Positions 9,312-26,564 of a stretch of DNA of 64,000 nucleotides are shown here, piece after piece. The DNA is taken from positions 12,690-76,689 of the forward strand of contig JADZAY010000009.1 in assembly GCA_020852375.1 (NCBI GenBank), in the 5' to 3' direction. The DNA comes from Candidatus Yanofskybacteria bacterium. Its GTDB lineage: Bacteria; Patescibacteriota; Minisyncoccia; 2-02-FULL-40-12; GWA2-44-9. Under the pieces are notes generated by a model. That model saw only the letters and a program-made list of their open reading frames with translations. It had not been told where the DNA came from and did no database searches. Position 1 is the first letter of the stretch, and each line of letters opens with the position of its first letter. Position numbers and translations under genes: made by a program.

Positions 9312-9417
9312 AACGCTAGTATATACGATATCCGCTACGCAGGGTATGACGCTCCCCGCGTCGATCTCTTACAGCACTGGCAAAAATGCGCCTTTTGTGC
9401 TATATTCCATACACTTT

Positions 9418-9488
9418 GGGCCTGTAGTTAAGTGGTATAACGGCGCATTCGCATTGCGCAAGCGGGAGTTCGATTCTCCCCAGGTCCA
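9418..9488 (+). tRNA. tRNA-Ala (anticodon CGC)
   Basis: G3:U70. Anticodon loop ttCGCat. Confidence 0.85.
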
Positions 9489-9498
9489 CCGATTGCCC

Positions 9499-11481
9499 AT
9501 GAATCCCATCCTCGACGGCCTCAATGAAAAGCAGGTCGAAGCCGTCACCACCACCGAAGGGCCCGTGCTGGTCATCTCGGGACCCGGGTCCGGGAAAACG
9601 CGCGCGCTCACGCACCGCATCGCGTACCTCATCGCGTCCGGCGTCCGCCCCGAGCATATCCTCGCCGTCACCTTCACCAACAAGGCGGCAGGGGAGATCA
9701 AAGAGCGGGTGACCTCGCTCCTCGGGCACCGTACCTCGCCGGCGGCGCGCCATCCCATTCCGACCATCGGCACGTTTCACTCAATCGGACTCCGCATACT
9801 TCGCCGACACGCGGAACGCATCGGATACGGTACGAACTTCACGATCCTCGACAGCGGAGATCAGCAGGCGCTCATTCGGCGCATCAGCGCCGATCTTGAG
9901 CTCGACTCGAAACGATACAGTCCGGGATCACTGCTCGGCAAGATCCAGAAACTCAAAACGGAACTCGTCGGACACCATCAGTACACCGGCACCGGACACA
10001 CGGAAAAGATCCTCGAGCGCGTGTACCGAGCGTACCAGGGTAGATTGGAATCGATGAACGCCGTCGACTTTGGAGACCTCATCTTCCTGACCGTCCGACT
10101 TCTCCGCGAACACCCCGATATTCTCGCGCACTATCAGGGCTTGTGGCGCTACCTCCTGGTAGACGAGTATCAGGACACCAGCCACGATCAGTACACGCTC
10201 ATCAATCTTCTTGCGGCAGGGCACGGTAACATCTTCTGCATCGGGGACGACGCGCAGTCGATCTACCTCTTTCGCCAAGCAGACATTCGGAACATCCTGA
10301 ACTTCCAGCGTGATTGGCCGAACGGAAAAGTCATCCTTCTTGAACAAAACTACCGCTCAACGAAAACCATCCTCGCGGCGGCACAGGCAGTCATCTCGAA
10401 TAACGCATCACAGATCCCGAAGGAGCTGTGGACCAACAATGCAGCGGGGGAGCAGATCACGGTTACCGAAACGGTCAGCGAGCGCCATGAGGCGCAGCAC
10501 CTTATTGAAACCCTCCGGACGCTCCAGCGCCGCCGATACACGCTGGCCGACTGCGCCGTTCTGTATCGGACCCATGCGCAGAGCCGCGCGCTCGAAGAGC
10601 AGCTCGTCCGCGCCGGCATCCCGTACCGCATCGTTGGTGGTATCCGGTTCTACGAACGAAGAGAGGTGAAGGATATTCTCGCGTATGCGCGCCTCCTCGC
10701 AAATCCGAACGACACGGTGAGCTTCGAGCGCATCGCCAATGTTCCCGCGCGCGGCATCGGGACGACGACCATCGACCGCCTCCTCGCCACTGACGCTCCG
10801 GATCGCATCTCGGCCGTCGGCATCCTCGCGCAAGAATATCCACCGACCGGAAGGGCGGGGAAGTCGCTCGATTCGCTTCATTCGCTTCTCGTGCGTCTCC
10901 AGCGCATTGCGCAAGAAAAGAAGCCGAGCGAAGTCATTCGTGCCATCCTCAAGCACACCGCATACGAAGACTATCTCCGCACTCAAAAGGGCCAGGATGC
11001 CGAGAGCGCCGAGGAGCGCGTTGAGAACGTACGCGAACTGCTGACCGTCGCGGCAAAGTACGACTCCGAAGGCTCTGCCGGTATGCGAACATTCCTCGAA
11101 GAGGTCGCGCTCCTTCAGGACACCGATCAGCTCGCCGCCGAAGACGCCGCCGTCACGCTCATGACCATGCACGCCGCAAAAGGCCTCGAGTTTCCAGTCG
11201 TATATGTTTGCGGCATGGAGGAGGGCCTCTTCCCGCACAGTCGGACCGTGTGGGCCCCGCATGAGCTCGAAGAGGAGCGCCGTCTCTGCTATGTTGCCAT
11301 TACTCGGGCTAAGGAACGCCTGTTCATCAGTCTTGCGAAGTGGCGCAACATTTTCGGTTCTCGGCAAGCGAACATTCCTTCCCGTTTTCTTTCGGAGATT
11401 CCCGCGCACCTGCTCTCGTGGCAGCGGATCGAACCCGACGACCGCTCTGCCGACGACGAGCGCATTGACTATGACTTCTAA
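9499..11481 (+). CDS. ATP-dependent DNA helicase, UvrD/PcrA/Rep family
   Basis: Walker A GPGSGKTRALTHR, motifs DEYQDTS, VGDDAQSIY, TMHAAKGLEFPVV. The ORF-track N-terminal extension through tRNA-Ala(CGC) is rejected; start at ATG 9499. Confidence 0.9.
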   Translation: MNPILDGLNEKQVEAVTTTEGPVLVISGPGSGKTRALTHRIAYLIASGVRPEHILAVTFTNKAAGEIKERVTSLLGHRTSPAARHPIPTIGTFHSIGLRILRRHAERIGYGTNFTILDSGDQQALIRRISADLELDSKRYSPGSLLGKIQKLKTELVGHHQYTGTGHTEKILERVYRAYQGRLESMNAVDFGDLIFLTVRLLREHPDILAHYQGLWRYLLVDEYQDTSHDQYTLINLLAAGHGNIFCIGDDAQSIYLFRQADIRNILNFQRDWPNGKVILLEQNYRSTKTILAAAQAVISNNASQIPKELWTNNAAGEQITVTETVSERHEAQHLIETLRTLQRRRYTLADCAVLYRTHAQSRALEEQLVRAGIPYRIVGGIRFYERREVKDILAYARLLANPNDTVSFERIANVPARGIGTTTIDRLLATDAPDRISAVGILAQEYPPTGRAGKSLDSLHSLLVRLQRIAQEKKPSEVIRAILKHTAYEDYLRTQKGQDAESAEERVENVRELLTVAAKYDSEGSAGMRTFLEEVALLQDTDQLAAEDAAVTLMTMHAAKGLEFPVVYVCGMEEGLFPHSRTVWAPHELEEERRLCYVAITRAKERLFISLAKWRNIFGSRQANIPSRFLSEIPAHLLSWQRIEPDDRSADDERIDYDF

Positions 11482-12295: not shown

Positions 12296-13213
12296 ATGAG
12301 CGGAAGACTGAAATTCCTTCTCGCTGTTTTGGCTGTGGGTGCCGGCCTTCTTTTCTGGTACTTCGCAAGCTACGGCCCAGCACCCTCGAAGCAGGCGGTC
12401 TCTGCGTCGCTCTACCAGAAGACCACCGCGACGCTCCAAGACACCGATAGCGATGGCCTCGGGGATCACGAAGAGACCTATTGGGGAACGGATTTCAAAA
12501 ACCCTGACAGCGACGGCGATGGATTCTCCGACGGGGAAGAGGTGTTGAGCGGGCACAATCCCGCAAAGAAAGGTCCTGACGACTTTTTGAATGAACGCCG
12601 TAATCTGACCGAACGAACCAGCACACTTCTGTTGGGCGGCCTCGTTGCCGGAGACCTGAATCCAGAAAGCCCCCAGTACGAAGCATCAGTCACTGCACTC
12701 GTCGACCAGTTGTTCGATCAATACAGCGCGAACACCGCCGTCGAGCTCGATTCGCTCACCTACAGCGACAACTCCACGGACGCCCTTATTCGCTACGGTC
12801 TCGCCATGAGCCGGATTCTTCCGAAATTGTTCTCCGAAACCGCAGAAGGATTCGTGAAGACGCTCGGAGTCGTGGGAAGCACCCCCATCGATGCACTCTC
12901 GAAGCTTCAGAAAGAGCAACCGGAAACCTACCGCACATTCGCCGCATCCATCGACACCCAGATTGTGCTCCTGGAGACCTACGCGGCAGACCTTAAGAAG
13001 CTCAAGGTTCCACCATCCATGCGCACCGCGCACCAGAATATGCTCCTCTTCGTCCGCGGATACCAACAGCAGTACCGCGCGGTACGCGACATCAGCCGCG
13101 ACCCGCTCCAGGGCATTATCGCACTCCAGGTGCTTGAGTCGCTCACCGCGGACACCTCCATAGAAATCAGCTCTGATTTTTCAAATCGCCTCGCCCGGGC
13201 ATTCCAGCAATGA
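12296..13213 (+). CDS. membrane-anchored protein with thrombospondin type-3-like Ca-binding repeats, hypothetical
   Basis: N-terminal TM helix. DTDSDGLGDHEE and DSDGDGFSDGEE repeats. First gene of the co-directional T4SS-like operon. Confidence 0.55.
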   Translation: MSGRLKFLLAVLAVGAGLLFWYFASYGPAPSKQAVSASLYQKTTATLQDTDSDGLGDHEETYWGTDFKNPDSDGDGFSDGEEVLSGHNPAKKGPDDFLNERRNLTERTSTLLLGGLVAGDLNPESPQYEASVTALVDQLFDQYSANTAVELDSLTYSDNSTDALIRYGLAMSRILPKLFSETAEGFVKTLGVVGSTPIDALSKLQKEQPETYRTFAASIDTQIVLLETYAADLKKLKVPPSMRTAHQNMLLFVRGYQQQYRAVRDISRDPLQGIIALQVLESLTADTSIEISSDFSNRLARAFQQ

Positions 13214-14874
13214 AATCCCGCTTCATCGCAATTTCCATACTCGCAATCGCCTCGCTCTTTGCGATTGTTCTGGGAGGAGCTCGCCCCGCCACCGCTGCAT
13301 TCGACACTACCCAGCTCTCCCCAGGACAACCCGTGAGCCAGGAAACGAGCACCACGCTTTCCGATATCATAAAAAACCGCGGTCTTACCGGGGATCGCTA
13401 CAAACAGATCTGCGTCGCCGGAAACATCTTTACCCTTTTCAAGGGGAATCTTGATGAAATTGGAAAGCGAATACTGAACCAGCTTGGGGGAATACTGAAA
13501 GACGTGTTCGCGATCATGAAAAAGACTTTGGTCGCATGCGCGGCGAATAGCATTCTAAACAGATTCGGCCTCCCCTCGATCCCTTGTAGCCAGATCGTCG
13601 CATCGGAAACAACCGCATATTTGAAAGCACGCGCCGAAGTCGACTTGAAACAGAGCTTCATAGCGCGATGCGTGGTAGACCAGCAGATCAACGACATCAC
13701 CAACACCATCGACCGCATGATCCAGGAGCAGGGGCCGGAAGGCGGCCCCGCATGGGCAACCAACTGGATCGAGAACTCATACGTGAACCCCGACCGCCAG
13801 GCATACCGCCGCTTCTGGACCCTGCTCGTGAACACTGATATCTGCGAGTACATGCGGCAGGACGTATACAACTACTTCGATGTCCCGCAGTCGTACCGTG
13901 AAAATCCGCCGGTAATGAACCTCACCGAGCTCAGCGTTGACGGGGGAACCCCGTTCCCGCTATCAGCCGCATGCACTGCAAAAGGTTGGGCCCCGGGCAA
14001 GATCACCGATACCCAGACATTCGCCACGAATGGTGGCTTCGCTCTTCTGAGCCGCCTTTCAGAGCCCCAAAACAACCCTACCGGCTTCATCCGTCTCGCC
14101 GAAGCAGAGCTGAGAAAACAGCGGGCGACGATGATAGATTCGGTCACCAACCAACTCGTCAGCGGCGGTGGCGTGTTCCCGGTCTACGGAACGAAAGAGG
14201 AGAGCTGCAACATGGACCCCGATGGCAACTGCGTCACGAATGGCCGCATCCGTCAGGCGCCCGGCGTCGCTCGCGACCTCATCAACTCCTCGTTCAACGC
14301 ACAACTAACATTTCTCAATAACACCAACGGAACGACTGCGAAGGCCATGGAGGATATTTCCGCTCGCATCCGTGCGCGCATGCTCGATATGGCAAACCAG
14401 CCGCTCCCCATTAAGCTCGAACTCGGCCTTGAGGACGACCCGGACAACGTCATCACCCCAACCCCGACACCGAGCGTCTCCCCGGGCGAATATCCGCCCG
14501 ATGATCCATCCTGCACGGGCGGGAACCCACAGTGCACCTGCGTACGGAGCGAACCGAACGCCGTTGCGCTCGTCGGCTCGGTCGTCCGGAGCGCCGTCGA
14601 GCGAGCCATGCAGCTGAACCCGGCATTCTTTGATCCCCCGGGGAGCAACCGCATCGCTTCCGGCGTGAACTACCGGACCGTTCTTCAGGCGGTATGCGAT
14701 CAGATGCAGCCGCCGCAGGGAACCATCTGCAAGCCGCACCCGGGGCAAGACGATGAGATCGTACTGGTGACGCAAATCATGAGCATTTCAGTCGACGTGA
14801 TCACCGGCGACGGAGGATTGCGTTCGAACGGAGGCAACCCCGTCGCCGCATGTGAGCTTGGAGTTCAAGACTAG
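13210..14874 (+). CDS. large secreted protein, hypothetical (554 aa)
   Basis: Signal peptide. Cys-rich. PTPTPSVSP linker. 4-bp overlap with the upstream gene. Confidence 0.55.
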   Translation: MKSRFIAISILAIASLFAIVLGGARPATAAFDTTQLSPGQPVSQETSTTLSDIIKNRGLTGDRYKQICVAGNIFTLFKGNLDEIGKRILNQLGGILKDVFAIMKKTLVACAANSILNRFGLPSIPCSQIVASETTAYLKARAEVDLKQSFIARCVVDQQINDITNTIDRMIQEQGPEGGPAWATNWIENSYVNPDRQAYRRFWTLLVNTDICEYMRQDVYNYFDVPQSYRENPPVMNLTELSVDGGTPFPLSAACTAKGWAPGKITDTQTFATNGGFALLSRLSEPQNNPTGFIRLAEAELRKQRATMIDSVTNQLVSGGGVFPVYGTKEESCNMDPDGNCVTNGRIRQAPGVARDLINSSFNAQLTFLNNTNGTTAKAMEDISARIRARMLDMANQPLPIKLELGLEDDPDNVITPTPTPSVSPGEYPPDDPSCTGGNPQCTCVRSEPNAVALVGSVVRSAVERAMQLNPAFFDPPGSNRIASGVNYRTVLQAVCDQMQPPQGTICKPHPGQDDEIVLVTQIMSISVDVITGDGGLRSNGGNPVAACELGVQD

Positions 14875-14876
14875 CC

Positions 14877-17465
14877 ATGACCCTACGCCGATCCATAGTA
14901 TTTATAGGACTCCTCACCATCGCAGTCGCGGTCGTGCCGCATGCGGCGCATGCGGCATCAAGCCCTGTCGAGTTTTTGACTGACCCTGGACTGTACATCA
15001 CCGTCATGATCCGGGATGTCCTGCAGTTCGTCGCCGGCGTCTTGACGGACTTTATTGTATGGATCGGAGACCGTCTTCAAGAAATTCTAAACCTACCGCT
15101 CAGCACCGGTGGCGTCGCCGTGTATGCGGTATGGAAGATGCTCCGCGACATGTGCAACATGCTGTTCATCGTTGCATTTATCGTTATGTCATTCGCGACC
15201 ATCTTCGGGGTGTTTCTGAAAGGGGACTATTACTACAGCAACGCCATCAAGGGCGTGCTTATCGCGGCGATCACGATCAACTTTAGTCTCGCGGTTGGTC
15301 AGACGATCATTTGGGGAGGGAATGAAGCCACAAAAATGGTCCTCGATCTCCTCCCAGAAAACACCGGGGCATCGATTGCGTTAAAACTAAGGGTCCTCGA
15401 TGTCATCGGTGGGGCCCAGGAAGGCAACGCAATTTCTTCACCGAACCAAAACACTGCCCGCGGTCGACTCACGCCGGCGCAGCGGATCGTTTATGACGCG
15501 TGGAGTAAGGATGGCAACACCGATGCAAAAAAGGTTCTTGAGGACTGCTTAGCGCACAATGGAACCCCTGCACAATGCATGGAGCAGGCCACGCAGTCGA
15601 CGTCCTTCGCCGAAGACGTCTTGAGCGCGGCCGGAGCTGCCTACTCAACAACAGGGGAGGCGCTTACCGCCGGCGTCGAGGCGCTCGCCGGGCAAGTGGT
15701 GCCAGGTGGGGCAACAATCCTCCGATCGCTAACGGGAAGAGAAACTAAAGGGGATAAAGACTGGAAAACCCAGCTCGAAATAATCGAGTCGATCATCATC
15801 CAAATCCTCTTCCTGCTGGTTCTGTCACTCTCATTCCTCGCGGTGCTCGTCTTCATGATCATACGGATACCTGCGATGTGGCTCCTTCTTTCCGTATCGC
15901 CGCTCGCATTCTTCTCGCTTGCGATCCCGGGACAGAGTCGCTTCAAGGACTGGTTCAACGGTGTTCTCGCGTGGTCTATCTTCTCGCCTCTGTACCTATT
16001 CATCGTCTACATCGGCCTCTACCTCGTCGAACGCCAAGGCGCGCTCCTAGAGAGTCTCCGCGATCCAGGCGGCAACATCCCGTTTATCGCCGGGAACCTC
16101 GCATCACTTCTCTTCCTCATCATCGCAGGAGCTATCTTTATCGGTGGCGCTGGATGGGCGATGAAATACTCGTTCAGCCTCGGGAAAGGCATCGGCAACC
16201 TCGCCGTCGGAACTTGGTGGGGCGCTACCGCGGGGAGGTGGTTCGGTATGTCGGAGAAAGAGCCGGTACTATTTAGACTTGCCGGAAGCCTCACCGGCAT
16301 TACACCAAGACTCCAGGCCAGAAAAGAGCAGATCGCACAGAAATACGGGGATATCGTTGCTGGAGCCCGCGGACGATTCCCGTCGCTCCTGCGAACCGAA
16401 GAGGAGGCGCTCGCGTTGCGTCGAGAACAGCGCGGCGTACGTGGAGCGGACAAAAAATATGCAGATGCCATCGCAAAGCGCGTAGACACCCAAAAAGCCA
16501 TCATCGAATCGAACAGGCTTAAGACGGAGGACCTCAAGAAGCTCCTCAAAAGCGGCAACCGAGATGCCAAGCTTGCTGCCGGAGAGATTCTCCTCGGAAA
16601 AGGGGAGCTCACCGCCGAGGAGCGCGAAGTTGTGCTCAAGCAATACGGAGAAATATCGGGGCTTGCAAAGAAGAACTTCCAAACGAAGGTCACCGCGCAG
16701 CTCCAAAAGGAATCCGCGCGCACCTGGGCGAAATACACCGACACCGGGAAAGAGGGCGGGGCATTCGACTTCGAGAAGTTTATCGCCACCGCGCAGCAGG
16801 CGGGCGGATCCGAAGACAAACGCAAATTCCTCGAGGCGGCCATGCGCGGCGAGGTCGGTTCGCGAGCACGATTCGATGCGAGCCAACTCCAGAAACTAGC
16901 CGACACGCTCGACAACAATGAAGACAAGCGCCTCCTCTTCGAAACCGTTTCGAGGAGCGGCCGCAACAAGGTTGTCGCCATCGAAACTATGGCTGCCCTC
17001 GGACTTATCACCGATCGCGCCGGAAAACGCCTCGACGCCGCGGGAGCGATCGCCGATCGTATCGACTCTCTATCATCGCCAGACGATCTTCTAGATGCAG
17101 AAGATTATTACCAGCGATCCGGAAACCCGATGCCAACCCCAATCCAAGAAAAGTTTAATGCATCGCTATTCCGGGATCGCTCGAAGTCGGCGAAAATGCT
17201 CCGAAACGCAAACCCGGAACAAGTCGACCGGCTCTACGGTTCGCTTGTCCAGGAGGCTGAGCGCGTACGATCGGCTCAAGAGGGGATCGAATCCCAGAAG
17301 ACATCGGAGCGGCGCATCAAAAAGATCGAGGATCGCTGGCGAAGGCGCATGAAGGGGATTAAGAGCCAGCCAGCCCGAAGAAGTATTGAACGAAAAATTG
17401 AAAAACTCGGAGATATCCGCGAGAAACTTAAGCGGTCGTACGAACGCGCACGCAAAACGCTATGA
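14877..17465 (+). CDS. VirB6/TrbL-like polytopic membrane protein with long C-terminal charged coiled-coil domain
   Basis: Signal peptide, multiple TM helices interrupted by a large extracytoplasmic loop, about 400-aa K/E/R-rich tail. Assignment based on topology and its position just upstream of the VirB4 ATPase. Confidence 0.5.
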   Translation: MTLRRSIVFIGLLTIAVAVVPHAAHAASSPVEFLTDPGLYITVMIRDVLQFVAGVLTDFIVWIGDRLQEILNLPLSTGGVAVYAVWKMLRDMCNMLFIVAFIVMSFATIFGVFLKGDYYYSNAIKGVLIAAITINFSLAVGQTIIWGGNEATKMVLDLLPENTGASIALKLRVLDVIGGAQEGNAISSPNQNTARGRLTPAQRIVYDAWSKDGNTDAKKVLEDCLAHNGTPAQCMEQATQSTSFAEDVLSAAGAAYSTTGEALTAGVEALAGQVVPGGATILRSLTGRETKGDKDWKTQLEIIESIIIQILFLLVLSLSFLAVLVFMIIRIPAMWLLLSVSPLAFFSLAIPGQSRFKDWFNGVLAWSIFSPLYLFIVYIGLYLVERQGALLESLRDPGGNIPFIAGNLASLLFLIIAGAIFIGGAGWAMKYSFSLGKGIGNLAVGTWWGATAGRWFGMSEKEPVLFRLAGSLTGITPRLQARKEQIAQKYGDIVAGARGRFPSLLRTEEEALALRREQRGVRGADKKYADAIAKRVDTQKAIIESNRLKTEDLKKLLKSGNRDAKLAAGEILLGKGELTAEEREVVLKQYGEISGLAKKNFQTKVTAQLQKESARTWAKYTDTGKEGGAFDFEKFIATAQQAGGSEDKRKFLEAAMRGEVGSRARFDASQLQKLADTLDNNEDKRLLFETVSRSGRNKVVAIETMAALGLITDRAGKRLDAAGAIADRIDSLSSPDDLLDAEDYYQRSGNPMPTPIQEKFNASLFRDRSKSAKMLRNANPEQVDRLYGSLVQEAERVRSAQEGIESQKTSERRIKKIEDRWRRRMKGIKSQPARRSIERKIEKLGDIREKLKRSYERARKTL

Positions 17466-17986
17466 TCGAACCAACCGACCCACGAAGCCCGGAGGTGATC
17501 GAATATATCTCCCTGAGTCCCTACGCGGCGGCACTGCAGGGGAAAGACCCTATCGATCGGGAGTTGTTCGGTCTGGTCTTCGACGACCTCCCGGAGCCAG
17601 TGAAAGACACGCTAACCGATCCGACCACGGTGGAAACCATCAAGCAATGGGCGCGCGACGGTCTCTTTCCGGCAACACATGCTCCGGCCATCGCGAAGCT
17701 CATCGGGCTCGTCGCGCTCGACGAGGTTGCCTTCGAGGCCATCCCTCAACTCCTTGAGCGTATCGGGCTTTCCCGGGACCAAGCGGGGCGAACCACTGCC
17801 GCGATCACAAAACTCCTGCAGGCACTCACTGATGCGCGCGCGAACGAAACAGCAGAAGAGGCGGCGCCGCAGGAACTCCGTGAGCTCCCGCCGCTTACCC
17901 AACGCGTGCCTCCGCAAGGACCCCATTCTGGCACCGAGACGCCCGCGCGTAATATAATAGACTTACGCAAGAAGCCCGAAGCATGA
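17462..17986 (+). CDS. hypothetical protein (T4SS-like operon)
   Basis: 174-aa ORF translationally coupled to both neighbours. Confidence 0.45.
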   Translation: MIEPTDPRSPEVIEYISLSPYAAALQGKDPIDRELFGLVFDDLPEPVKDTLTDPTTVETIKQWARDGLFPATHAPAIAKLIGLVALDEVAFEAIPQLLERIGLSRDQAGRTTAAITKLLQALTDARANETAEEAAPQELRELPPLTQRVPPQGPHSGTETPARNIIDLRKKPEA

Positions 17987-18294
17987 AATTTCAAGTTCCT
18001 CAATTCATCGAGACGGAAACAAAGCTCATCGGGCCACTTACGCTCCGACAGTTCCTCTTCGTCGCTGGCGGCGTCAGCATGACCGCTATGGCGTATATCG
18101 CGCTGAATGGCATCTACTTTGCGATCGCCGCGATCCTCATTCTGGGATTCTTCGGAGCGCTCGCATTCGTACGGATCGACGGACAACCGTTCTTCAATTA
18201 TCTCGCCTACATGCTCGCGTACACGCTCGGCGCGAAGCGGTACATCTACCGAACCGGCGGGAACCAGAATCAATTCACACCACCTCATGCCTGA
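17983..18294 (+). CDS. PrgI-like / VirB3-like small two-TM membrane protein
   Basis: 103 aa, two TM helices (LFVAGGVSMTAMAYIALNGIYFAIAAILILGFFGALAFV), immediately upstream of VirB4. This arrangement is typical of Gram-positive and CPR T4SS loci. Confidence 0.5.
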   Translation: MKFQVPQFIETETKLIGPLTLRQFLFVAGGVSMTAMAYIALNGIYFAIAAILILGFFGALAFVRIDGQPFFNYLAYMLAYTLGAKRYIYRTGGNQNQFTPPHA

Positions 18295-18925
18295 ACCATC
18301 GACGACCGAACTGATCCAACTCCAATCCGTCTCGGACGGAGTCATCATCCTGAAGGACGACTCGCTCCGCGCTATCGTCGAGGTTACCGCCATCAACTTC
18401 GAGCTCCGAAGCGGCGAAGAACAGGCCGCCATTTTGCAACAATTCGCCGCATTTCTGAACTCCGTCGATTTCCCGGTCCAGCTCGTCGTCCACTCGCGCA
18501 GATTCGACATCAGCACCTACCTCGCCTCCGTACAGCAAGCCACCCAAGCACTGACTAATGACCTCCTGAAAGTGCAGGCGGAGGAATATATCCGGTTCGT
18601 CTCTGAGCTCTCAGACCTCGCGAACATCATGGCAAAGCGGTTCTACATCGTGCTGCCGCTTTCGGTCGTGCCGGTCGCCGCCAGCGGGGGATTTATCTCG
18701 GGAATCACCGGCCTGTTCAAAAAGAAGCCGAAAGAAACGGCGATCTCCCCAGAGCGCATCGCCCAATACAAGTCTCAGCTTCAGCAACGCGCGGAGATCG
18801 TCATCGGCGGCATCTCCGGCATGGGTTTGCGTGGGCGCATGCTCGAACAAGCGGAGGTCGTCACCCTGTTCAACGCGCTCTACAATCCGGTCATTCCCGC
18901 AACCAAGAAACCAGAAACACCGTAA
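18287..18925 (+). CDS. VirB4/TrbE-family protein, N-terminal domain fragment (split from ATPase domain)
   Basis: 213 aa starting MPEPSTTELIQLQSVSDGVIILKDDSLRAIVEVTAINFELRSGEEQ, resembling the N-terminus of conjugal-transfer ATPases. Ends with TAA 2 nt before the ATG of the ATPase ORF, in a different frame. Confidence 0.5.
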   Translation: MPEPSTTELIQLQSVSDGVIILKDDSLRAIVEVTAINFELRSGEEQAAILQQFAAFLNSVDFPVQLVVHSRRFDISTYLASVQQATQALTNDLLKVQAEEYIRFVSELSDLANIMAKRFYIVLPLSVVPVAASGGFISGITGLFKKKPKETAISPERIAQYKSQLQQRAEIVIGGISGMGLRGRMLEQAEVVTLFNALYNPVIPATKKPETP

Positions 18926-18927
18926 CC

Positions 18928-20670
18928 ATGGACGAATCCCTCTCGATCGCACAATCCATCGCACCGTCAGCGCTCCACATCACCCCGAACTACCTCCAGG
19001 TGGGGGACAAGTATGCGCGTACCATCGTGATCGCTTCGTACCCACGGTATTTGAACGCGAGTTGGCTCTCTCCGATCATCAATTTCGACAAGGTTCTCGA
19101 CATATCGATCTTCGTGAATCCGCAACAGACCTCCACAGTTCTCAAACAGTTGCGCGACAAGCTTGCACACGTCCAGGCCCAGATCATGGAGGAGGAGGCG
19201 GCTGGGAAGGTTCGGAACCCGGTACTCGAGACGGCCGCGCAAGACATCGAAGCGCTCCGCGATGAGCTTCAGCAGGGGACCGAACGCTTCTTCCAGGTTG
19301 GCCTCTATATCACCATCTACGAGAACAGCCCGCAGGAGCTGGACGAAACCGAAAAGACCATCCGCAGCATCCTCGACGGCCAGCTGGTCGTTGCCAAGCA
19401 GGCGACATTCCGTATGCTCGAGGGATTCCTGACCACATCGCCGCTCGCCGACGACCGCATTCAGGCGCTTACCGCACTCAACACGCAGCCGGTAGCATCG
19501 ATGTTCCCGTTCATATCGAGCGATCTTACCAGCGACTCCGGCATCTTGTATGGAGTGAACACGACGAACAATTCGCTCGTGCTCTTCGATCGCTTCTCGC
19601 TCGAGAACGCGAACACCGTGCTGTTCGCAAAGTCCGGTGCCGGAAAAAGCTACACCGTGAAGCTCGAGATCCTGCGTTCACTGATCATGGGGACGCAGAT
19701 CCTCGTCATCGACCCTGAGGACGAATATAAATATCTGAGCGACACGGTCGGCGGCACGAACGTGAAGATCTCGATCAACTCCGATCAGCACATCAATCCA
19801 TTCGACCTCCCGACACCAAAAGACGAGGAATCGTGGAGCGACGTGTTCAACTCACACATCCTTGGCCTCGCTGGCCTCATAAAACTGCTCATGGGAGGCC
19901 AGTTGTCACCGGAAGAGGAATCGATGATCGACCAGGCGCTCATCCAGACATACGCCCTGAAAGACATTACCCCCGATACCGACTTCTCGAATCTACCGCC
20001 GCCAGTGTTGAGCGACCTCCAAAGCATCCTCGAGGGGATGGCGGGGGCGGAACGCATGGCAACGCGCCTCAAGAAGTTCACCGAAGGAACATTCGCAGGA
20101 TTCCTCAACAATCCGACCAATGTTCCACTCGACAACCAGCTCGTCGTCTTCGGCATCAGAGACCTGGAAGACGAGCTTCGCCCGATCGCTATGTACTCGG
20201 TGCTCAACTACATCTGGACACAGGTGCGTCGCGAGCGGAAGAAGCGCATCCTCGTCGTCGATGAGGCCTGGTGGATCATGAAATTCCCGGTTGGAGCTGA
20301 CTTCTTGTTTAACATCGCGAAGCGCGGCCGAAAATATTACGTCGGACTCACCACGATCAGCCAGGACATCCCCGACTTCATGAGCGCGCCGCAAGGAAAG
20401 GCGATCGTGACGAACTCCTCCATTCAGGTGCTCATGAAGCAGTCTCCGGCGGCTATCGATATTATCCAGCAGACTTTCAACCTTACCGATTCGGAGAAAT
20501 ACTACCTCCTTGAAGCGCGCGTCGGGTTCGGGTTGTTCTTCCTCGGCGCAAACCATGTCGGGCTCCGGGTGCTCGCTTCCTACGCAGAAGACCAGATCAT
20601 CACCTCAGATCCGAAACAGCTCATCGAGATCGAAAAAGCAAAGCAAGAGTGGGCGAAGCTAAATACATAG
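18928..20670 (+). CDS. virB4: VirB4/TrbE/CagE-family type IV secretion ATPase (C-terminal and middle domains)
   Basis: Walker A FAKSGAGKSYT, Walker B ILVVDEAWWIM; 580 aa. Confidence 0.85.
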   Translation: MDESLSIAQSIAPSALHITPNYLQVGDKYARTIVIASYPRYLNASWLSPIINFDKVLDISIFVNPQQTSTVLKQLRDKLAHVQAQIMEEEAAGKVRNPVLETAAQDIEALRDELQQGTERFFQVGLYITIYENSPQELDETEKTIRSILDGQLVVAKQATFRMLEGFLTTSPLADDRIQALTALNTQPVASMFPFISSDLTSDSGILYGVNTTNNSLVLFDRFSLENANTVLFAKSGAGKSYTVKLEILRSLIMGTQILVIDPEDEYKYLSDTVGGTNVKISINSDQHINPFDLPTPKDEESWSDVFNSHILGLAGLIKLLMGGQLSPEEESMIDQALIQTYALKDITPDTDFSNLPPPVLSDLQSILEGMAGAERMATRLKKFTEGTFAGFLNNPTNVPLDNQLVVFGIRDLEDELRPIAMYSVLNYIWTQVRRERKKRILVVDEAWWIMKFPVGADFLFNIAKRGRKYYVGLTTISQDIPDFMSAPQGKAIVTNSSIQVLMKQSPAAIDIIQQTFNLTDSEKYYLLEARVGFGLFFLGANHVGLRVLASYAEDQIITSDPKQLIEIEKAKQEWAKLNT

Positions 20671-20671
20671 T

Positions 20672-21697
20672 ATGCCAGGAGAAGTATCGCCCCAAACACC
20701 AACAAACATCGTTCCACCGCCTCCGCAAAATGGTGGAGGTACACCGAAACCAGTCGATGGGGTCGGGGTGGGGGGCGCTATCGAGACGAGCGTAAACATT
20801 GCTGAGCGCCGTAAAGTCAAAAGAGATATCCGGGAAACGCGCCGCGTCTATGACATCGCAGCCGCCTCAGGAGCAACAACCCGAACCCGAGGAGCCAGAA
20901 CGGCGGGCGCCGTGCTTTCGTCGCCAGACCTTCCCCAAGAAGTCCGCGGACTCGCCGAGCGGCTCCGCTCGCTCATCTCTGACAACAAACGGAAAAGCGA
21001 AGATCGGACAAAGGAGTTCGACGCCATCCGCCGATCCATCAAGCGGTCGTTCATCGGTATCACCGGACTCGCACTGTATATCGCAATCTCCGCCGACATC
21101 CTCAGCATCTTTGACGCGGGGTGGATCATCTCGTGGGCAATTCCGATCGTGCTATTCTTCGTGGCTCGCCGCATCGGAGCGATCAATAAAGGAGCTGAGC
21201 GCGCGCAAAAGGCGTACGCAGCAACCCTCCGGGAGCTTCAGCTCATCAACCAACGCCTCGGCACCATCCCTGGGCAGCAACAGCGGCCCGTCCTTGCCGG
21301 TCTTACTGAACAGCTTCAGGGAAAAGTCGGTCAGTACATGACCCGGTTCGTCCTCGAAACCGCTGGCATACAAGGATTCGAGCTCATACCGATCCTGGAC
21401 TGGCTTCCCGCATACACCGGCGGAGTTGTGAAGGTAGCCATCGACCAGTACAACGCGTACCAAAAAGCTCAGCGCATGCTCCCGCCGCTTCAGGAGGCGT
21501 TCGCTCGCCTCGAACAGCTCGAGACGGAAGAAGTTGCGGCGCTCGAAGCGCAGCTCAGTGAAGCGCTTGCGTTGTATCAGCCGGAATTCACCGAGCGGTT
21601 TTATGTATCAGAAGAGGCCCCCCGTATCATGGATATAACCCGACCCTCGACGCGACCGCTCGAAGCGCCGTTGCTCGTACCCGAACCCGCACTATGA
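20672..21697 (+). CDS. membrane protein, hypothetical (T4SS-like operon)
   Basis: Pro-rich N-terminus, central TM pair, coiled-coil C-terminus. Coupled to VirB4. Confidence 0.5.
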   Translation: MPGEVSPQTPTNIVPPPPQNGGGTPKPVDGVGVGGAIETSVNIAERRKVKRDIRETRRVYDIAAASGATTRTRGARTAGAVLSSPDLPQEVRGLAERLRSLISDNKRKSEDRTKEFDAIRRSIKRSFIGITGLALYIAISADILSIFDAGWIISWAIPIVLFFVARRIGAINKGAERAQKAYAATLRELQLINQRLGTIPGQQQRPVLAGLTEQLQGKVGQYMTRFVLETAGIQGFELIPILDWLPAYTGGVVKVAIDQYNAYQKAQRMLPPLQEAFARLEQLETEEVAALEAQLSEALALYQPEFTERFYVSEEAPRIMDITRPSTRPLEAPLLVPEPAL

Positions 21698-22851
21698 AAC
21701 CCTTCCGCGCAAACCTGAATTTTGTCCACGAACGACGCATTGCCTCAGCCGGAGTTGTGATCGGCGCGCTTGTGGCAACCGTCGTCGTCACGGCGTTCGT
21801 GTGGAGCGGAGTAGCTCCGCGTTCTCGACAGACAGCATCGATTGCAAACATCCCGGCAGATACAACACCTCCGCAAACTTTGTCACCGAAGGCTGTTCGA
21901 GTTGCTCCAGAGCCTATCAGCGAACACGCTGTCAGCTCTGTGGCCCACAGTCGAACGCCCGATACCGTCCGCTACTACGAGCAAGAGACTGGGCGTGCGT
22001 TCCAAGTCGACCTCCGCACACTCAAGACGGAAACCCTTTCGGATCGCAAGCTCCCCGGATTCATTCAGTCGTTCTGGGTCCCGAATGCAGATGCGGTAGT
22101 CTCGTTGTTCGATGAAGCGGGGAGCAAAAAGTACCGCTACTATGACTACCAGACACGAACCGCAAAAACGATTGGGTCTGCTGTATCGACGCTCGCCGTC
22201 TCTCCAAGCGGACGCCGCATCGCGTTTATCGATACGACTGGTGAATATCAAGCTCTCTATATCGGCGACACTGATGGAACCGCGGTCCGCAAGGTATTCG
22301 ATACTCGCGCGCAGCACGTCGCTCTCTCGTGGCCCCGCGAAGACGCCTTGGTGCTCACCTCACGCAGGCCGGACCGCGCTGGAACGGATATGTCGGTCAT
22401 CGGACTGAACGGCGAGCTTCGTGTCCTCATGTCGAACCGCGAAAACCTGGAGTACACATGGTCGCCAGATGGGTCGAACCTCCTCTTCTCGTACTTCTTT
22501 CCAGGGAGGGGGATTACACTATGGTATCGCTCTCTCGATAGCGCCCTTGAGATTCCCGTCCCGCTCGCCACGAGCGCTTGGAAGTGCGCCTGGCACAACT
22601 CCAACGAAAAGATCACATGCGGCGTCCCAACCACAACGCTCTCGCGAGATGTGGCGTCCGACAAAACCGCAACGATCGACACCATCGCGACCATCGATCT
22701 TCGCAGCGGGAAGGTCTCGAATCTTTACACTGGCAGTCGGGAGCCCCTCATCGGGGTCATAAATCCCTCAATCTCATCATCGCAACGATACTTCGTCTTC
22801 ACAAACCTCTTCGACCGGCGGCTGATGGAGCTCGAGTTGCCCGCGTATTAG
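21694..22851 (+). CDS. membrane-anchored beta-propeller (TolB-like) protein, hypothetical
   Basis: N-terminal TM helix followed by a WD40/TolB-like repeat pattern. Last gene of the operon. Confidence 0.5.
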   Translation: MKPFRANLNFVHERRIASAGVVIGALVATVVVTAFVWSGVAPRSRQTASIANIPADTTPPQTLSPKAVRVAPEPISEHAVSSVAHSRTPDTVRYYEQETGRAFQVDLRTLKTETLSDRKLPGFIQSFWVPNADAVVSLFDEAGSKKYRYYDYQTRTAKTIGSAVSTLAVSPSGRRIAFIDTTGEYQALYIGDTDGTAVRKVFDTRAQHVALSWPREDALVLTSRRPDRAGTDMSVIGLNGELRVLMSNRENLEYTWSPDGSNLLFSYFFPGRGITLWYRSLDSALEIPVPLATSAWKCAWHNSNEKITCGVPTTTLSRDVASDKTATIDTIATIDLRSGKVSNLYTGSREPLIGVINPSISSSQRYFVFTNLFDRRLMELELPAY

Positions 22852-23306
22852 AGCGGCTTAATGACGACTCGGCGGTGCGGCTCCTGGCCGACACTTTCCG
22901 TGGTGAGATCGCTATACGAAGCGAGTTCTGTGTGCACGATTCTGCGCTCGTACGGACTCATCGGGTTGAGCGCTTCCGACTTCCCGGTGACGCGGACGCG
23001 TTCGGCAGTATTCCGCACGTGCGCGACAAGCTCCTGGGCGCGCTCAGCATGATAGTCGTTCACATCAACAGTGATCGCTCGCTGTTCGGGGTATTTCCGC
23101 ATCCACATCATCCGAATAATATGCTCGAGAGCCTTTAGATTTTGGCCGCCCTTCCCAATAAGAAGCCGCCCGTGCTCATCGGAACGCACCGAGACGCAAA
23201 TAGGACCGCTCTCCGGAGTGGAGACCGCCACATCGCAGGGGATCTGCAAATACTCCGTGAGCTCTTTCACGAGAGTTGTGAGACCTTCGGCATCGATGTT
23301 TTGCAT
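22848..23306 (-). CDS. jag: Jag/KhpB RNA-binding protein (KH + R3H domains)
   Basis: LIGKGGQNLKALEHI (KH) and NPMSPYERRIVH (R3H). Sits downstream of yidC in the conserved operon. Confidence 0.8.
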   Translation of the reverse strand: MQNIDAEGLTTLVKELTEYLQIPCDVAVSTPESGPICVSVRSDEHGRLLIGKGGQNLKALEHIIRMMWMRKYPEQRAITVDVNDYHAERAQELVAHVRNTAERVRVTGKSEALNPMSPYERRIVHTELASYSDLTTESVGQEPHRRVVIKPL

Positions 23307-23320
23307 GGTGACAGTATGGA

Positions 23321-23992
23321 TTATCGCCGCTTCAAATACAACTGTTCTCCGATAGACCACGCGGTAGTAACAACCCAATACAGTGCGAGACCGGCTGGGA
23401 GGCTCCAGCTCACCACAACAATGATGATCGGCAACAGGTACATCATTTGCTGGTTCATGGCGGCGGCCTGCCCGGATGCCGCTTGTCCTCCCATGGAGAC
23501 ACGCGCTTGTATGAATTGCATCGCTCCGGCAACAATGGCAAGTACGGGGCTCCGTTTACTGATATCGAACACGCCCAGCATGATGTGGTTCACCGTTCCT
23601 GGATCGGGGACGAATCGATAGAGGAGGTCGAGAGTCTCCGGCTTGAAGATGTTCAAAAAGACCCGATACACCCCAAACAGGACGGGGAGTTGCAGTACAA
23701 GCGGCAGACATCCGGCTAGCGGATTCACTCCTTTTTCTTTGTACAGCGCCATCACTGCCTCCGATTGTGCCTGCGTATTCCCTTTATGCTTCTCTTTAAT
23801 GGCCTCGATCTCCGGGGCAAGCTCGGCCATCCCACGCTGGGACCGAGCGGTCTTCAGAGAGAGCGGGGAGAGGGCTGCCCGGATAAGGATGGTCATCGCA
23901 ACAATGGCGACCCCGAGATCGGCAAATGCGACCGTTCCATAGAGGTACATCGTCAAATTCAGAATCGGTCGGTAGATGATCTCGGTAAACAT
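23321..23992 (-). CDS. yidC: membrane protein insertase YidC/Oxa1 family
   Basis: Conserved LYKEKGVNPLAGCLP and LLPIIIV..SWSLPAGLALYW motifs. Start uncertain (24046 or 23992). Confidence 0.85.
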   Translation of the reverse strand: MFTEIIYRPILNLTMYLYGTVAFADLGVAIVAMTILIRAALSPLSLKTARSQRGMAELAPEIEAIKEKHKGNTQAQSEAVMALYKEKGVNPLAGCLPLVLQLPVLFGVYRVFLNIFKPETLDLLYRFVPDPGTVNHIMLGVFDISKRSPVLAIVAGAMQFIQARVSMGGQAASGQAAAMNQQMMYLLPIIIVVVSWSLPAGLALYWVVTTAWSIGEQLYLKRR

Positions 23993-24006
23993 GCGAGGAG
24001 GGGTGA

Positions 24007-24237
24007 TTAGCGGAGTGTGGCGTGACGTATTGCGAACGGGTTGCACTTCAAAAAGCGAAGCGTTGCGACAGCAGCTCCTCGCAGAACCCCGCGTTCACTG
24101 ATCGCCCGGATCGCATAGTCAGAGCACGTAGGCCATGAACGACATCCAGAGACGGGGAGCGCGAACGGTGAGGCGCTCAGTAGGTGTCTCCCGAACCGCT
24201 GATACATTCGGATACCCTGAATGATGAGCCGCTTCAT
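24007..24237 (-). CDS. yidD: membrane protein insertion efficiency factor YidD
   Basis: YQRFGRHLLSASPFALPVSGCRSWPTCSDYAIRAI is typical of YidD. Confidence 0.85.
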   Translation of the reverse strand: MKRLIIQGIRMYQRFGRHLLSASPFALPVSGCRSWPTCSDYAIRAISERGVLRGAAVATLRFLKCNPFAIRHATLR

Positions 24238-24587
24238 CGGACTAGGATAGCAGATTTTTGGAGGAGCGACACCACCTCAGCATGAAGAGTTGCCGCGTTG
24301 GGGAGGGGGAGTTTTTTCACTGAGAACACCGCGATGGAGCCGTCCGGGATATCGCGCCGACTCACCACCCGACGGACCACCTCCGAGACGCTTCTACGAA
24401 CCGCGTTTCGAAGCACCGCTTTCGGGGCGAGTTTTACCGATACAGTCACTCCGAAGCGCGTGTTCTGTGATTCGCGTATGCGTCGTACTCTCAGCGCGAG
24501 ATGCTCCGATGAGATTGGGCGCACTTCTTTGAATACTGTTGCGTACTGCTTTGCTCCGGTGAGTCGATGTTTTGAGGGTATCGCCAT
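24234..24587 (-). CDS. rnpA: ribonuclease P protein component
   Basis: 117 aa, basic; RLTGAKQYATVF...RNAVRR motif. Between rpmH and yidD. Confidence 0.85.
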   Translation of the reverse strand: MAIPSKHRLTGAKQYATVFKEVRPISSEHLALRVRRIRESQNTRFGVTVSVKLAPKAVLRNAVRRSVSEVVRRVVSRRDIPDGSIAVFSVKKLPLPNAATLHAEVVSLLQKSAILVR

Positions 24588-24600
24588 TACACGCTACAAA

Positions 24601-24631
24601 TATCCGCCCCGACGGATCGCCGGGGCGGATA
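24601..24631. terminator. hairpin terminator after rpmH
   Basis: TATCCGCCCCG-acggatcgc-CGGGGCGGATA. Confidence 0.5.
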
Positions 24632-24634
24632 TGT

Positions 24635-24772
24635 TTAGACAGTCAGCTTTGCCCGTCCCTTGCTCCTCCGACGAGCGAGGACCTTTCTCCCGGATTTTGT
24701 CTTCGTTCGAGAGAGGAATCCGTGCTTCCGACTTCGTTTTGCTTTCTTGGGACGATAGCGAGTTATTTTCAT
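24635..24772 (-). CDS. rpmH: 50S ribosomal protein L34
   Basis: Hand translation gives [45 protein letters not shown]. Not in the ORF track because it is shorter than 60 aa. Confidence 0.9.
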
Positions 24773-24936
24773 AATAGGGGTTCGCCGGTGGCGCGCACAC
24801 GACGTTCATTCATACGGAGTTTACTATGTTTGATTGTGCAAGTCAATATTTACCCGTTTTTTCCACTTGTTATAAACACTCTATCAACGTTTTTGCGATT
24901 TCTCCCTTCTTGAGCGAGGTGCGCTGAACGGTATAC

Positions 24937-26334
24937 TTGCGGCACATGTCATCCATTCCTCCGGAAGATATTTGGAAAGCAGTGTTGGGAGAAATGGAGC
25001 TTTCTCTTTCTCGCGCGCATTTTACGACGTGGTTCAAGAACACGTCGATCGTCTCTCGTGATTCAAATTCGGTAACGGTGAGTGTTCCGAATGGTTTCGT
25101 AAAGGAATGGCTTGAGAATAAGTTCAACCGCCAAATCCTCGCTTCCGTCCGAAAGCTTTGCAATGAGATTCGAGAGGTCCGCTATATCGTCGGACAACCG
25201 AAACCAGAACCGGCACGCCAGGACATCTCTAAAATCATTATTGAGAAAGAATTCCAGGAACAGTCGGCTGTCGATCAAAGCCAAGAAATCGATAAGGTTA
25301 CCCATCTGAACAAGAAGTACTCCTTCGATTCATTCATCGTCGGCTCATCGAATGAGCTTGCCTTTGCGTGTGCCCAGTCGGTTGCCGCGAATCCTGGGAA
25401 AAACTACAACCCGCTCTTTATTTATGGTGGAGTTGGCCTAGGAAAGACGCATTTGATCCAATCCATCGGAAACAAGCTCCTCACCGATGTCCCTGAACGG
25501 AAGGTGTTGTACACATCGGGTGAGAAACTCACATCGATTATTGTGGAAGCGATCCGAAATCGAACTATCGAAGATATCAAATCGGTGTACTCCCGCCTCG
25601 ATCTCCTTGTTATTGATGACATCCAATTCATAGCCGGAAAAGACAAGACCCAAGAAGTCGTGTTCACGATCTTCAACGAGCTTCACAACCACAACAAACA
25701 GGTTGTGTGCACATCGGATCGGCCCCCGAAAGCGATCCCTGCCATCGAAGAGCGTCTTCAGTCTCGCCTCGAAGGGGGAATGTTGGTTGATATCAATATG
25801 CCCGATTTTGAAACGCGATTGGCGATTTTGAAACAAAAATCAGTTGAGCGGTCCTCACCGCTTACCGATGAAGTCCTTTCATATATAGCAACCCATATCC
25901 AAAAAAATGTTCGCGAACTCGAGGGGGCTCTTAATCGAGTGATCGCCCTGGCGCAGATCTACAACCGTCCGCCAGACCTTAAAGAGGTGAAAAACATCCT
26001 CACCGCATACTTGTCGGTTCCGTACCGAAAAACATCCCCGCAGGCTATTTTGAAAACGGTCGCCGATTTCTACAATATTTCTTCAGCCGACCTTACGAAG
26101 CGGAGTCGAAAGAAAGAGGTTGTAAAGCCGCGGCAAGTCGCCATGTTCCTTTTGCGAGAAGAAATAAAGCTTTCTTTCCCGGAAATCGGACAGAAGCTTG
26201 GTGGCCGCGACCACTCGACAGTCATCCACGCATGCGAAAAGATAAAGAAAGAAGAGGGAATCGACGAGCCACTCAAGAACGAGCTCACTATGATCCGCCA
26301 GCGTATTTACGACTCTTTCGAGCACTCGGGATAG
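24937..26334 (+). CDS. dnaA: chromosomal replication initiator protein DnaA
   Basis: AAA+ motifs [16 protein letters not shown] and [10 protein letters not shown]-terminal DNA-binding domain. Confidence 0.95.
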
Positions 26335-26564
26335 GTTGTTGAAAACCCTGTGGATGACCTTTGTGTGCGCTGTGGGTGAAATGTGTGAATTATTCCCGCC
26401 TCCGGAAACGACCCACAAACACACCCGGGAAATAAGGTTCCCGTCCACATTCGGAATCCTTGGTTTCTCCGCGAAAGGAAAGAGAAATAGCGAGCTCCAT
26501 CCCCATATCAACACCCATAATAAGATATAGTAATATAAGTTAGATTATAGAGCAGAAAAACACT
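26335..26564. promoter_or_regulatory. candidate oriC: DnaA-box-like motifs plus AT-rich unwinding region in the dnaA-dnaN spacer
   Basis: TGTGGATGA 26349-26357, TGTGGGTGA 26371-26379, TGTGTGAAT 26382-26390, GTCCACATT about 26443-26451. The run ATAATAAGATATAGTAATATAAGTTAGATTATAG 26517-26550 is nearly pure AT. Confidence 0.5.

Follow-up and report, generated by a model that had tools for sequence, protein, structure and literature searches.

A putative Patescibacteria-clade type IV secretion locus beside the replication origin of a Candidatus Yanofskybacteria genome

What kind of machine is encoded by nine tightly packed, co-directional genes that lie next to dnaA in a genome of Candidatus Yanofskybacteria? 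The genes, designated g1 to g9 (positions 12296-22851, + strand), are contained in a 64-kb stretch of contig JADZAY010000009.1, which is referred to here as the window and which is the extent covered by all window-level negative results. We consider it probable (approximately 0.78) that the locus encodes the membrane platform of a Patescibacteria-clade type IV secretion system (T4SS), a vertically inherited, chromosomal system descended from the conjugation machines of monoderms (MPF-FATA). Only a few machines are known to be indispensable to Patescibacteria as epibionts, and the T4SS is one of these. The window provides a clean and complete example of it from the Yanofskybacteria, a group of family rank that has a relative enriched in culture on Methanothrix. 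The central features of the system were already published between 2023 and 2025 (PMC12102498, PMC10633639). The additions made here are modest: a set of conserved accessory families, and an upstream module, g1-g4, that diverges faster than the motor.

PrgI, a split VirB4 and a VirB6-like protein

The identification of g5 as PrgI/VirB3, and of g6 and g7 as the two parts of a split VirB4, is secure, as are the identities of g1 and g9 described below. The g5 gene (17983-18294, +) encodes a PrgI/VirB3-type protein of 103 aa with two transmembrane (TM) segments, which matches PF12666 PrgI with an E value of 1.3e-11 and 45.3 bits, versus a cutoff of 27. The g7 protein (18928-20670, +; 580 aa) is the VirB4 motor ATPase and corresponds to the C-terminal two thirds of a canonical VirB4. 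It matches the NCBIfam model NF045971 (conju_CD1110 VirB4) with 359.5 bits versus a cutoff of 325, covering model positions 184-733, and the Pfam families P-loop_TraG, AAA_10 and DUF87; the Walker A (FAKSGAGKS) and Walker B (ILVVDEAW) motifs are visible in the translation. The N-terminal domain of VirB4 is encoded by an open reading frame (ORF) of its own, the TrsD-like g6 (18287-18925, +; 212 aa), for which the ATG at 18287 fits the upstream stop, the longest ORF beginning at 18107. NCBIfam matches of g6 are to positions 5-119 of the CD1110 VirB4 model, positions 104-233 of the Mbov_0397 VirB4 model, and also the TrsD/TraD family NF041427. An initial annotation of the window had recognized both the PrgI-like two-TM protein and the VirB4-family ATPase, and its gene descriptions fit eight of the nine genes; the gene it omitted is g6, so that the splitting of VirB4 was missed.

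For comparison, the 80 best genome matches to the g7 VirB4 were used, with one locus taken from each and gene presence scored by tblastn. Homologs of g7 were found in all 80 loci, of g6 in 78/80, and of g5 in 72/80, immediately upstream of g6. In 77 of 78 loci, the g6 and g7 homologs occupy separate ORFs, the junctions of which vary, and because this two-ORF arrangement is so widely shared, the split is native and not a sequencing error. The loci come from Yanofsky-, Giovannoni-, Niyogi- and Nealsonbacteria and from other Paceibacteria. Their VirB4 proteins are 51-95% identical to g7, and nearly all are labeled as Patescibacteria (candidate phyla radiation, CPR). Identity to plasmid-encoded VirB4 proteins is 28-36% among the matches listed, and the best 15 listed are all from monoderms. 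Quinonero-Coronel et al. (2025) described a monophyletic clade of Patescibacteria VirB4 proteins nested within MPF-FATA, in which the most abundant associated component is TrsD, a homolog of the VirB4 N-terminus (PMC12102498).

The g3 gene (14877-17465, +) encodes an 862-aa polytopic membrane protein that is best read as an extended VirB6-like protein, a weaker assignment than those above, made despite failed membership of curated profiles. The protein has a signal peptide, about seven hydrophobic or TM segments, a loop of approximately 150 aa containing a conserved Cys pair, and a charged C-terminal tail of approximately 380 aa. With at least five TM segments, a large extracytoplasmic loop and a gene beside virB3/virB4, it has the polytopic make-up of VirB6/TrbL proteins, and its family is found upstream of PrgI-TrsD-VirB4 in 67/81 sources (the 80 loci plus the window, all ORFs of which were clustered into families). 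Sub-threshold NCBIfam matches of g3 are to the monoderm VirB6-type families MMCAP2_0566 (E 3e-5), Mbov_0396 (E 8e-5) and pLS20_p028 (E 3e-3). Relatives of g3 match Pfam TrbL below the cutoff at E values of 4e-4 and 1.5e-3, and precomputed annotations of three relatives contain PF19590, which we take to be TrbL-like. Pfam scans across the family otherwise gave sporadic unrelated matches, and the family profile matched nothing meaningful among PDB sequences. An AlphaFold2 model of the N-terminal 480 residues has a mean predicted local distance difference test (pLDDT) score of 71.8. When it was compared by Foldseek with 350,542 PDB chains, the three best matches were TrwI/VirB6 of R388 (8rt9_F; E 0.033, probability 0.98), DotA of the Legionella Dot/Icm system (9ngy), and VirB6 (8rtd_L). 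The word-indexed homolog searches that supplied the AlphaFold input, made for g3 with a single sequence and a profile, and also for g2, returned 10-17 proteins, and the input alignments are hence shallow. The initial description of g3 as VirB6/TrbL-like with a charged tail of about 400 aa therefore holds for the membrane topology and the tail, and is weakly supported by the model and the sub-threshold matches, but none of the curated thresholds was reached.

Several observations weigh against the interpretation of the locus as a T4SS platform of this clade. The curated NCBIfam VirB6/TrbL profiles score g3 at 16-24 bits versus cutoffs of 70-150, Pfam TrbL has no match on g3 itself, and a tblastn search of plasmids with the g3 N-terminal domain found no match. 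TM-scores of the g3 model to the VirB6/DotA structures are 0.25-0.38. None of the operon proteins has a Pfam or NCBIfam profile match to a VirB8-like component (PrgL/TraM, NTF2-like). The placement of g7 in the Patescibacteria VirB4 clade nested in MPF-FATA is suggested by the gap between its identities to the two sets of VirB4 proteins. Operon status is likewise suggested by gene spacing, and scans of the operon for promoters and terminators found no enrichment over shuffled sequence. Finally, the function proposed below is argued from a distant relative belonging to Saccharimonadia, rather than from this lineage.

A fixed chromosomal site beside oriC

The nine ORFs fill 12296-22851 with hardly any intergenic space. 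The initial annotation gave the coordinates and the gene count correctly, but the 4-bp overlaps it described apply to four junctions; of the others, one has an overlap of 8 bp, and in three the genes are 1-2 nt apart. The last gene, g9, is convergent with jag on the opposite strand. Orthologs of the T4SS genes occur in unchanged order in many genomes, indicating that these are real genes, and the suggested synteny comparison with T4SS loci of Patescibacteria thus recovered the same arrangement. The conserved order of the Paceibacteria module is g1 (39/81 sources), g2 (41/81), the VirB6-like gene, g4 (64/81), PrgI, TrsD (72/81) and VirB4 (79/81), followed by a small TM-hairpin protein, an optional immunoglobulin-like protein and pilin, g9 (49/81), and jag. 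All nine ORFs in the window are intact. Ratios of nonsynonymous to synonymous substitution (dN/dS) relative to the nearest relative are 0.02-0.12 for g1, g2, g6, g7 and g8, the five genes with unsaturated dS, and are rough values because dS is near saturation. These five genes are under purifying selection.

The operon lies between uvrD-ksgA and jag-yidC-rnpA-dnaA-dnaN, with ksgA ending at 12241 and dnaA starting at 24937. The origin region (22848-27659) comprises jag (-), yidC (-), a 76-aa ORF (-), rnpA (-), dnaA (+) and dnaN (+). The cumulative GC-skew minimum falls at approximately 24-26 kb, at dnaA, which places the operon beside oriC. By tblastn, ksgA is found upstream of the operon in 45/80 loci, and downstream neighbors are jag in 63/80, yidC in 62/80 and dnaA in 58/80; the uvrD-ksgA pair upstream is syntenic in 29-45/80 loci. 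The GC content of the operon equals that of its flanks, with no compositional break. The nearest genome locus is from another Candidatus Yanofskybacteria metagenome-assembled genome, with a VirB4 that is 95% identical, and g3 and g2 are recorded as the Candidatus Yanofskybacteria hypothetical proteins IT406_02260 and IT406_02255, whereas an exact look-up of g7 in a contig index gave no record. Since the oriC-proximal synteny recurs across many genomes, the operon occupies a fixed chromosomal site and is not a mobile element. The same neighborhood has been reported for Paceibacteria T4SSs, which are close to dnaA, dnaN, rnpA, ksgA and rpmH (PMC12102498).

Pfam scans covered the main candidates among the window ORFs, and NCBIfam scans some of these; the other ORFs were assigned by visual inspection of the translated sequences. 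None of the ORFs examined in this way encodes a relaxase, a coupling protein/VirD4, VirB11 or VirB9/10, in agreement with the initial annotation, and the remaining genes of the window are housekeeping genes. Given that neither a relaxase nor a coupling protein is available nearby, conjugation is most likely not what this machine does.

Other explanations of these genes have to be weighed against this background. The two ORFs of VirB4 lie in different frames, the first ending with a stop at 18925 and the second opening with an ATG at 18928, as would be expected if the operon were a decaying remnant of an ancestral conjugation system in which VirB4 had suffered a frameshift. Such decay is scarcely tenable: the two-ORF arrangement is shared by nearly all related loci with varied junctions and by a Pontibacillus megaplasmid, the nine ORFs are intact, dN/dS is low for the five genes named above, and the TrsD homolog is essential in Southlakia (PMC12102498). 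A frameshifted VirB4 pseudogene is refuted by the conservation of the split. It could also be supposed that the operon serves the transfer of an integrated conjugative element whose relaxase and coupling protein are encoded beyond the window. Among curated families, the nearest ones consist of conjugation proteins (CD1110 VirB4, Mbov_0395/0396/0397 of the Mycoplasma integrative and conjugative element (ICE), and TrsD), and VirD4 homologs are frequent elsewhere in Patescibacteria genomes, although usually far from virB4 (PMC12102498). This is very improbable given that the ksgA/jag-yidC-rnpA-dnaA position is constant across genomes of Yanofsky-, Giovannoni-, Niyogi- and Nealsonbacteria, that neither an integrase nor a repeat boundary was seen at the evenly composed locus, and that VirB4 identity tracks dnaA identity between genomes (95 versus 96%, 84 versus 84%). 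Relaxases were reported in 103 of 3,035 Patescibacteria genomes and are seldom near virB4 (PMC12102498). A position beside oriC that is kept in at least 58 of 80 related genomes is not that of a characterized conjugative element, the finding that the initial annotation had named as contrary to its reading.

A third explanation concerns function: the operon could encode a DNA-uptake machine, a reversed T4SS like ComB of Helicobacter or Ced of Sulfolobales, which would bring in DNA of the host to supply nucleotides or to serve in recombination. Bacteria of the CPR are generally not expected to make nucleotides de novo, and de novo synthesis is not expected in this organism. The lack of a relaxase and a coupling protein in the window would suit such a machine, and CedB, an ATPase of archaeal DNA import, is matched weakly and far below threshold by g6 (E 2.6e-3) and g7 (E 2.4e-13). 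In the class ABY1, the T4SS co-localizes with comF, recG and radA (PMC12102498). We nevertheless regard DNA uptake as unlikely. Of the curated VirB4 families, the one with the top score, 359 bits, comes from conjugation, compared with 49.6 bits for CedB, and no com genes adjoin the operon. In Southlakia, competence depends on type IV pili, and deletion of comEC abolishes competence without affecting viability, whereas the T4SS is essential (PMC12857230, citing Wang 2023); the essential role of the T4SS is therefore not ComEC-dependent DNA uptake. The Patescibacteria-clade T4SS remains our preferred interpretation of the operon.

A distant pilin array and the accessory proteins

A second T4SS locus is found at 56066-59110 (+), 33 kb from the operon, and was overlooked in the initial annotation. 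Its first gene (56066-57184, +) encodes a 372-aa fusion of a VirB2-like T4SS pilin domain with a VirB1-like lytic transglycosylase domain. The latter matches PF01464 SLT with an E value of 1.3e-13; the pilin domain scores 25.9 bits with PF18895 T4SS_pilin, just below the cutoff of 26.6, and has an E value of 1.1e-25 with a hidden Markov model (HMM) derived from pilin domains in related loci. The fusion gene is followed by a gene for an anchored protein of 195 aa (57188-57775, +), which carries a signal at its N-terminus and a TM segment at its C-terminus and has no Pfam or NCBIfam match, and then by four small pilin paralogs in tandem. Paralog 1 (57780-58061, +; 93 aa) scores 36.1 bits with PF18895, above the cutoff, with an E value of 3.4e-9 for the local pilin HMM and a weak match to the Mbov_0395 family (E 1.3e-4). 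Paralog 2 (58058-58330, +; 90 aa) scores 39.7 bits with PF18895, and matches TrbC/VirB2 PF04956 (E 1.3e-4) and Mbov_0395 (E 1e-6). Paralog 3 (58355-58717, +; 120 aa) scores 30.4 bits with PF18895, above the cutoff, and matches Mbov_0395 with an E value of 2.6e-6. Paralog 4 (58733-59110, +; 125 aa) is the most divergent, with 20.9 bits for PF18895, below the cutoff, and an E value of 5.6e-7 for the local HMM. Of the five pilin domains, three are thus above and two below the PF18895 cutoff; the local HMM finds all five, with E values from 1e-25 to 6e-7, and three weakly resemble the pilin-like family Mbov_0395 of the Mycoplasma ICE. In Giovannoni- and Niyogibacteria, the pilin genes (family f6) are inside the operon, two to three genes past VirB4. 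We conclude that the pilin array at 56066-59110 belongs functionally with the T4SS operon, despite its distance from it.

The initial annotation had called the apparatus minimal, which was overstated: in addition to the pilin and lytic transglycosylase locus, there are at least five conserved accessory families. The first gene of the operon, g1 (12296-13213, +; 305 aa), encodes an N-terminally anchored protein with bacterial thrombospondin-3 Ca-binding repeats and an uncharacterized C-terminal domain. It matches PF18884 TSP3_bac with 26.4 bits versus a cutoff of 25, and its family profile matches 7c7u, a Bap-like surface protein, in the repeat region (E 7e-8); where the family occurs, it is always first in the operon. 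The last gene, g9 (21694-22851, +; 385 aa), encodes an N-terminally anchored TolB-like beta-propeller, with a PD40 match of 23.5 bits, above the cutoff, a TIGR02800 TolB match with an E value of 1e-6, and a family profile that matches TolB structures (E 1.8e-13); its family is the last before jag. The Ca-binding repeats, the TM-anchored beta-propeller and the secreted Cys-rich protein encoded by g2 had all been discerned in the initial annotation.

The genes g2, g4 and g8 are without named relatives, but their operon position is kept across genomes. The g2 protein (13210-14874, +; 554 aa) is rich in Cys, is secreted or anchored, and belongs to an orphan family. A hydrophobic anchor or signal at the N-terminus is followed by a conserved core (residues ~136-400), and a Pro/Thr linker connects the core to a C-terminal domain. 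Among 10 homologs, 11 Cys residues are invariant and one is nearly invariant. A search at E<=1e-3 found 362 cluster representatives of the family among 1.84 billion. Nothing informative was found for g2 in Pfam or among PDB sequences, also with the family profile, and Pfam scans of family members gave sporadic unrelated matches. The structure predictions proposed in the initial annotation were thus helpful for g3 but not for g2, whose AlphaFold2 model is poor (pLDDT 58) and gave noise with Foldseek against the PDB. The g4 gene (17462-17986, +) encodes a small soluble protein of 174 aa, also of an orphan family, always located between the VirB6-like gene and PrgI. An alignment of 46 positional homologs indicates that a Pro-rich linker joins a helical N-terminal domain of approximately 100 aa to a conserved motif at the C-terminus, which is NIIDLRK in the window, NIIDLR(K/N) in Yanofskybacteria-like loci and DPYRE in other lineages. 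The motif might act as a docking peptide or as a signal for secretion. The g4 protein has no Pfam or PDB match; the profile of its family found nothing meaningful among PDB sequences, and Pfam scans of family members gave at most sporadic unrelated matches. The g8 gene (20672-21697, +) encodes a membrane protein of 341 aa in which a TM hairpin containing acidic residues lies between a disordered N-terminus and a coiled-coil C-terminus; the protein has no Pfam or NCBIfam match. It belongs to a divergent family encoded directly after VirB4: iterative HMM search, the only method by which this membership is seen, unites g8 with families f21, f20, f36, f27, f39 and f53 at position +1 after VirB4, giving 44 members in total. 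A VirB2-like pilin was also considered for g8 and rejected, there being no PF18895 match and the family being different from the pilin family f6.

The proteins g1, g2 and g9, each with an N-terminal anchor or signal, are presumably extracytoplasmic. In BLAST comparisons of genome pairs with VirB4 identity of at least 90%, g1-g4 are 25-84% identical, compared with mostly 75-99% for PrgI, TrsD, uvrD, yidC and dnaA; values of 25-84% for g1-g4 occur where VirB4 and dnaA are 90-99% identical. Between the window and its nearest relative, g3 is 46% and g4 is 45% identical, as opposed to 95% for VirB4 and 96% for dnaA. The upstream module g1-g4 diverges much faster than the motor, which could be due to diversifying selection or to replacement of a cassette by recombination. 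The part of the machine that contacts the host may be represented by the unnamed accessory families and the fast-evolving upstream module. A bolder interpretation, which we consider doubtful, is that g1, g2, g3 together with g4, g8 and g9 form an undescribed envelope-spanning host-contact structure of the Paceibacteria T4SS, with the divergence of g1-g4 reflecting diversifying selection that sets host range, and with a machine that might import host material rather than secrete. Some relatives in the class have archaeal (methanogen) hosts.

Relationship to known systems and proposed mechanism

The initial proposal of a T4SS-like machine in a reduced-genome bacterium is borne out by the Patescibacterial affiliation of the window, from Candidatus Yanofskybacteria, and by the resemblance of the locus to a known system, the Patescibacteria-clade T4SS. 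Patescibacteria T4SSs possess PrgI/VirB3, VirB6 homologs and arrays of 2-11 divergent VirB2-like pilins (PMC12102498). In the window, as in that system, represented by Southlakia epibionticum SEML1_0006-0019, a separate TrsD-like ORF and PrgI/VirB3 precede VirB4, a VirB6-like polytopic protein and a divergent VirB2-like pilin array are present, and there is no nearby relaxase or coupling protein; the chromosomal site by dnaA, dnaN, rnpA and ksgA is the one reported for Paceibacteria. The differences are that the pilin array and SLT domain are 33 kb from virB4, instead of in the cluster as in the Southlakia, Giovannoni- and Niyogibacteria loci, and that the portions of PMC12102498 and PMC10633639 drawn on here do not list the TSP3 protein, the Cys-rich g2, g4, the g8 family or the TolB-like propeller among the components of the T4SS. 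Functional data on the system come from Southlakia, outside the class to which the window belongs. By transposon sequencing, Wang et al. (2023) found that the T4SS genes and pilins of Southlakia are essential for epibiotic growth; coupling and relaxase proteins were not recognizable, and protein export or an alternative role was suggested (PMC10633639). T4SS pilins are among the expressed genes in Paceibacteria enrichments growing on methanogens (PMC10936435).

The monoderm MPF-FATA systems, i.e., TrsC-TrsD-TrsE of pGO1/pSK41, PrgH-PrgI-PrgJ of pCF10, CD1110 of the C. difficile conjugative transposon and Mbov_0395/0396/0397 of the Mycoplasma ICE, share with the window an above-cutoff CD1110 VirB4 with TrsD-like and PrgI-like partners. 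The window proteins also weakly match the Mycoplasma ICE pilin-like, polytopic and VirB4 families, and the outer-membrane core (VirB7, VirB9 and VirB10) is absent from both. Unlike the monoderm systems, the window has no recognized relaxase, coupling protein, VirB8-like protein or adhesin; the locus is not on a mobile element, its VirB2-like array has multiple paralogs, and its VirB6-like protein has a long charged tail. A similar module is found on the megaplasmid NZ_CP062975.1 of Pontibacillus sp. ALD_SL1 (351.8-361.4 kb), where two pilin-like genes are followed by genes for a 779-aa polytopic protein, a VirB3/TraL-like protein, a TrsD-like ORF (28% identical to g6, E 4e-23), a short VirB4 (34% identical) and a cell-wall hydrolase (peptidoglycan endopeptidase), with no relaxase annotated within 9 kb. 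It differs in being located amid chemotaxis/flagellar genes on a Bacillota replicon of approximately 0.9 Mb typed as non-mobilizable, and in having no homologs of g1, g2, g4 or g9; its polytopic protein has no detectable similarity to the g3 family (hhalign probability 1.7%). VirB2-like pilins and a split VirB4 are consequently not unique to Patescibacteria among monoderms, which hints that both may predate the Patescibacteria system. With the R388 Trw and Agrobacterium VirB systems (7o3v, 8rt9), the window shares the VirB3-VirB4-VirB6 inner-membrane module and the logic of VirB2 pilins, and TrwI/VirB6 is the best PDB match of the g3 model, although this similarity is weak. In addition, those diderm systems possess VirB5, VirB7-VirB11 and VirD4, for which no counterparts were found here.

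A mechanism can be proposed by analogy, from the T4SS structures that have been solved and from the genetics of Southlakia. In it, hexamers of VirB4 (g6 and g7) would dock on VirB3 (g5) and the VirB6-like g3 at the membrane. VirB4 could then pull VirB2-like pilins from the membrane and polymerize them into a pilus or conduit, for which the SLT domain may open the cell wall, and the predicted extracytoplasmic proteins g1, g2 and g9 might constitute the wall-spanning or host-contact part. Such a machine would more likely serve contact-dependent exchange between the epibiont and its host cell, by protein export or uptake of host material, than conjugation.

Other features of the window were noted in passing. 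The longest ORF of UvrD/PcrA (9256-11481, +) crosses a tRNA-Ala gene (9418-9490, +), so that its real start must be past 9490, at approximately 9496. A lone PilB/GspE-type ATPase (34062-35750, -; T2SSE E 5e-121, plus MshEN) is encoded between ruvB and nusA, with no type IV pilus genes adjoining. The tRNA-Phe(GAA) gene (42946-43224, +) is split by a 206-nt group I intron (Rfam RF00028, 72 bits) in the anticodon loop, between U33 and G34, with exon 1 at 42946-42977, the intron at 42978-43183 and exon 2 at 43184-43224; ARAGORN finds it only after splicing in silico, when a clean 73-nt tRNA-Phe is obtained.

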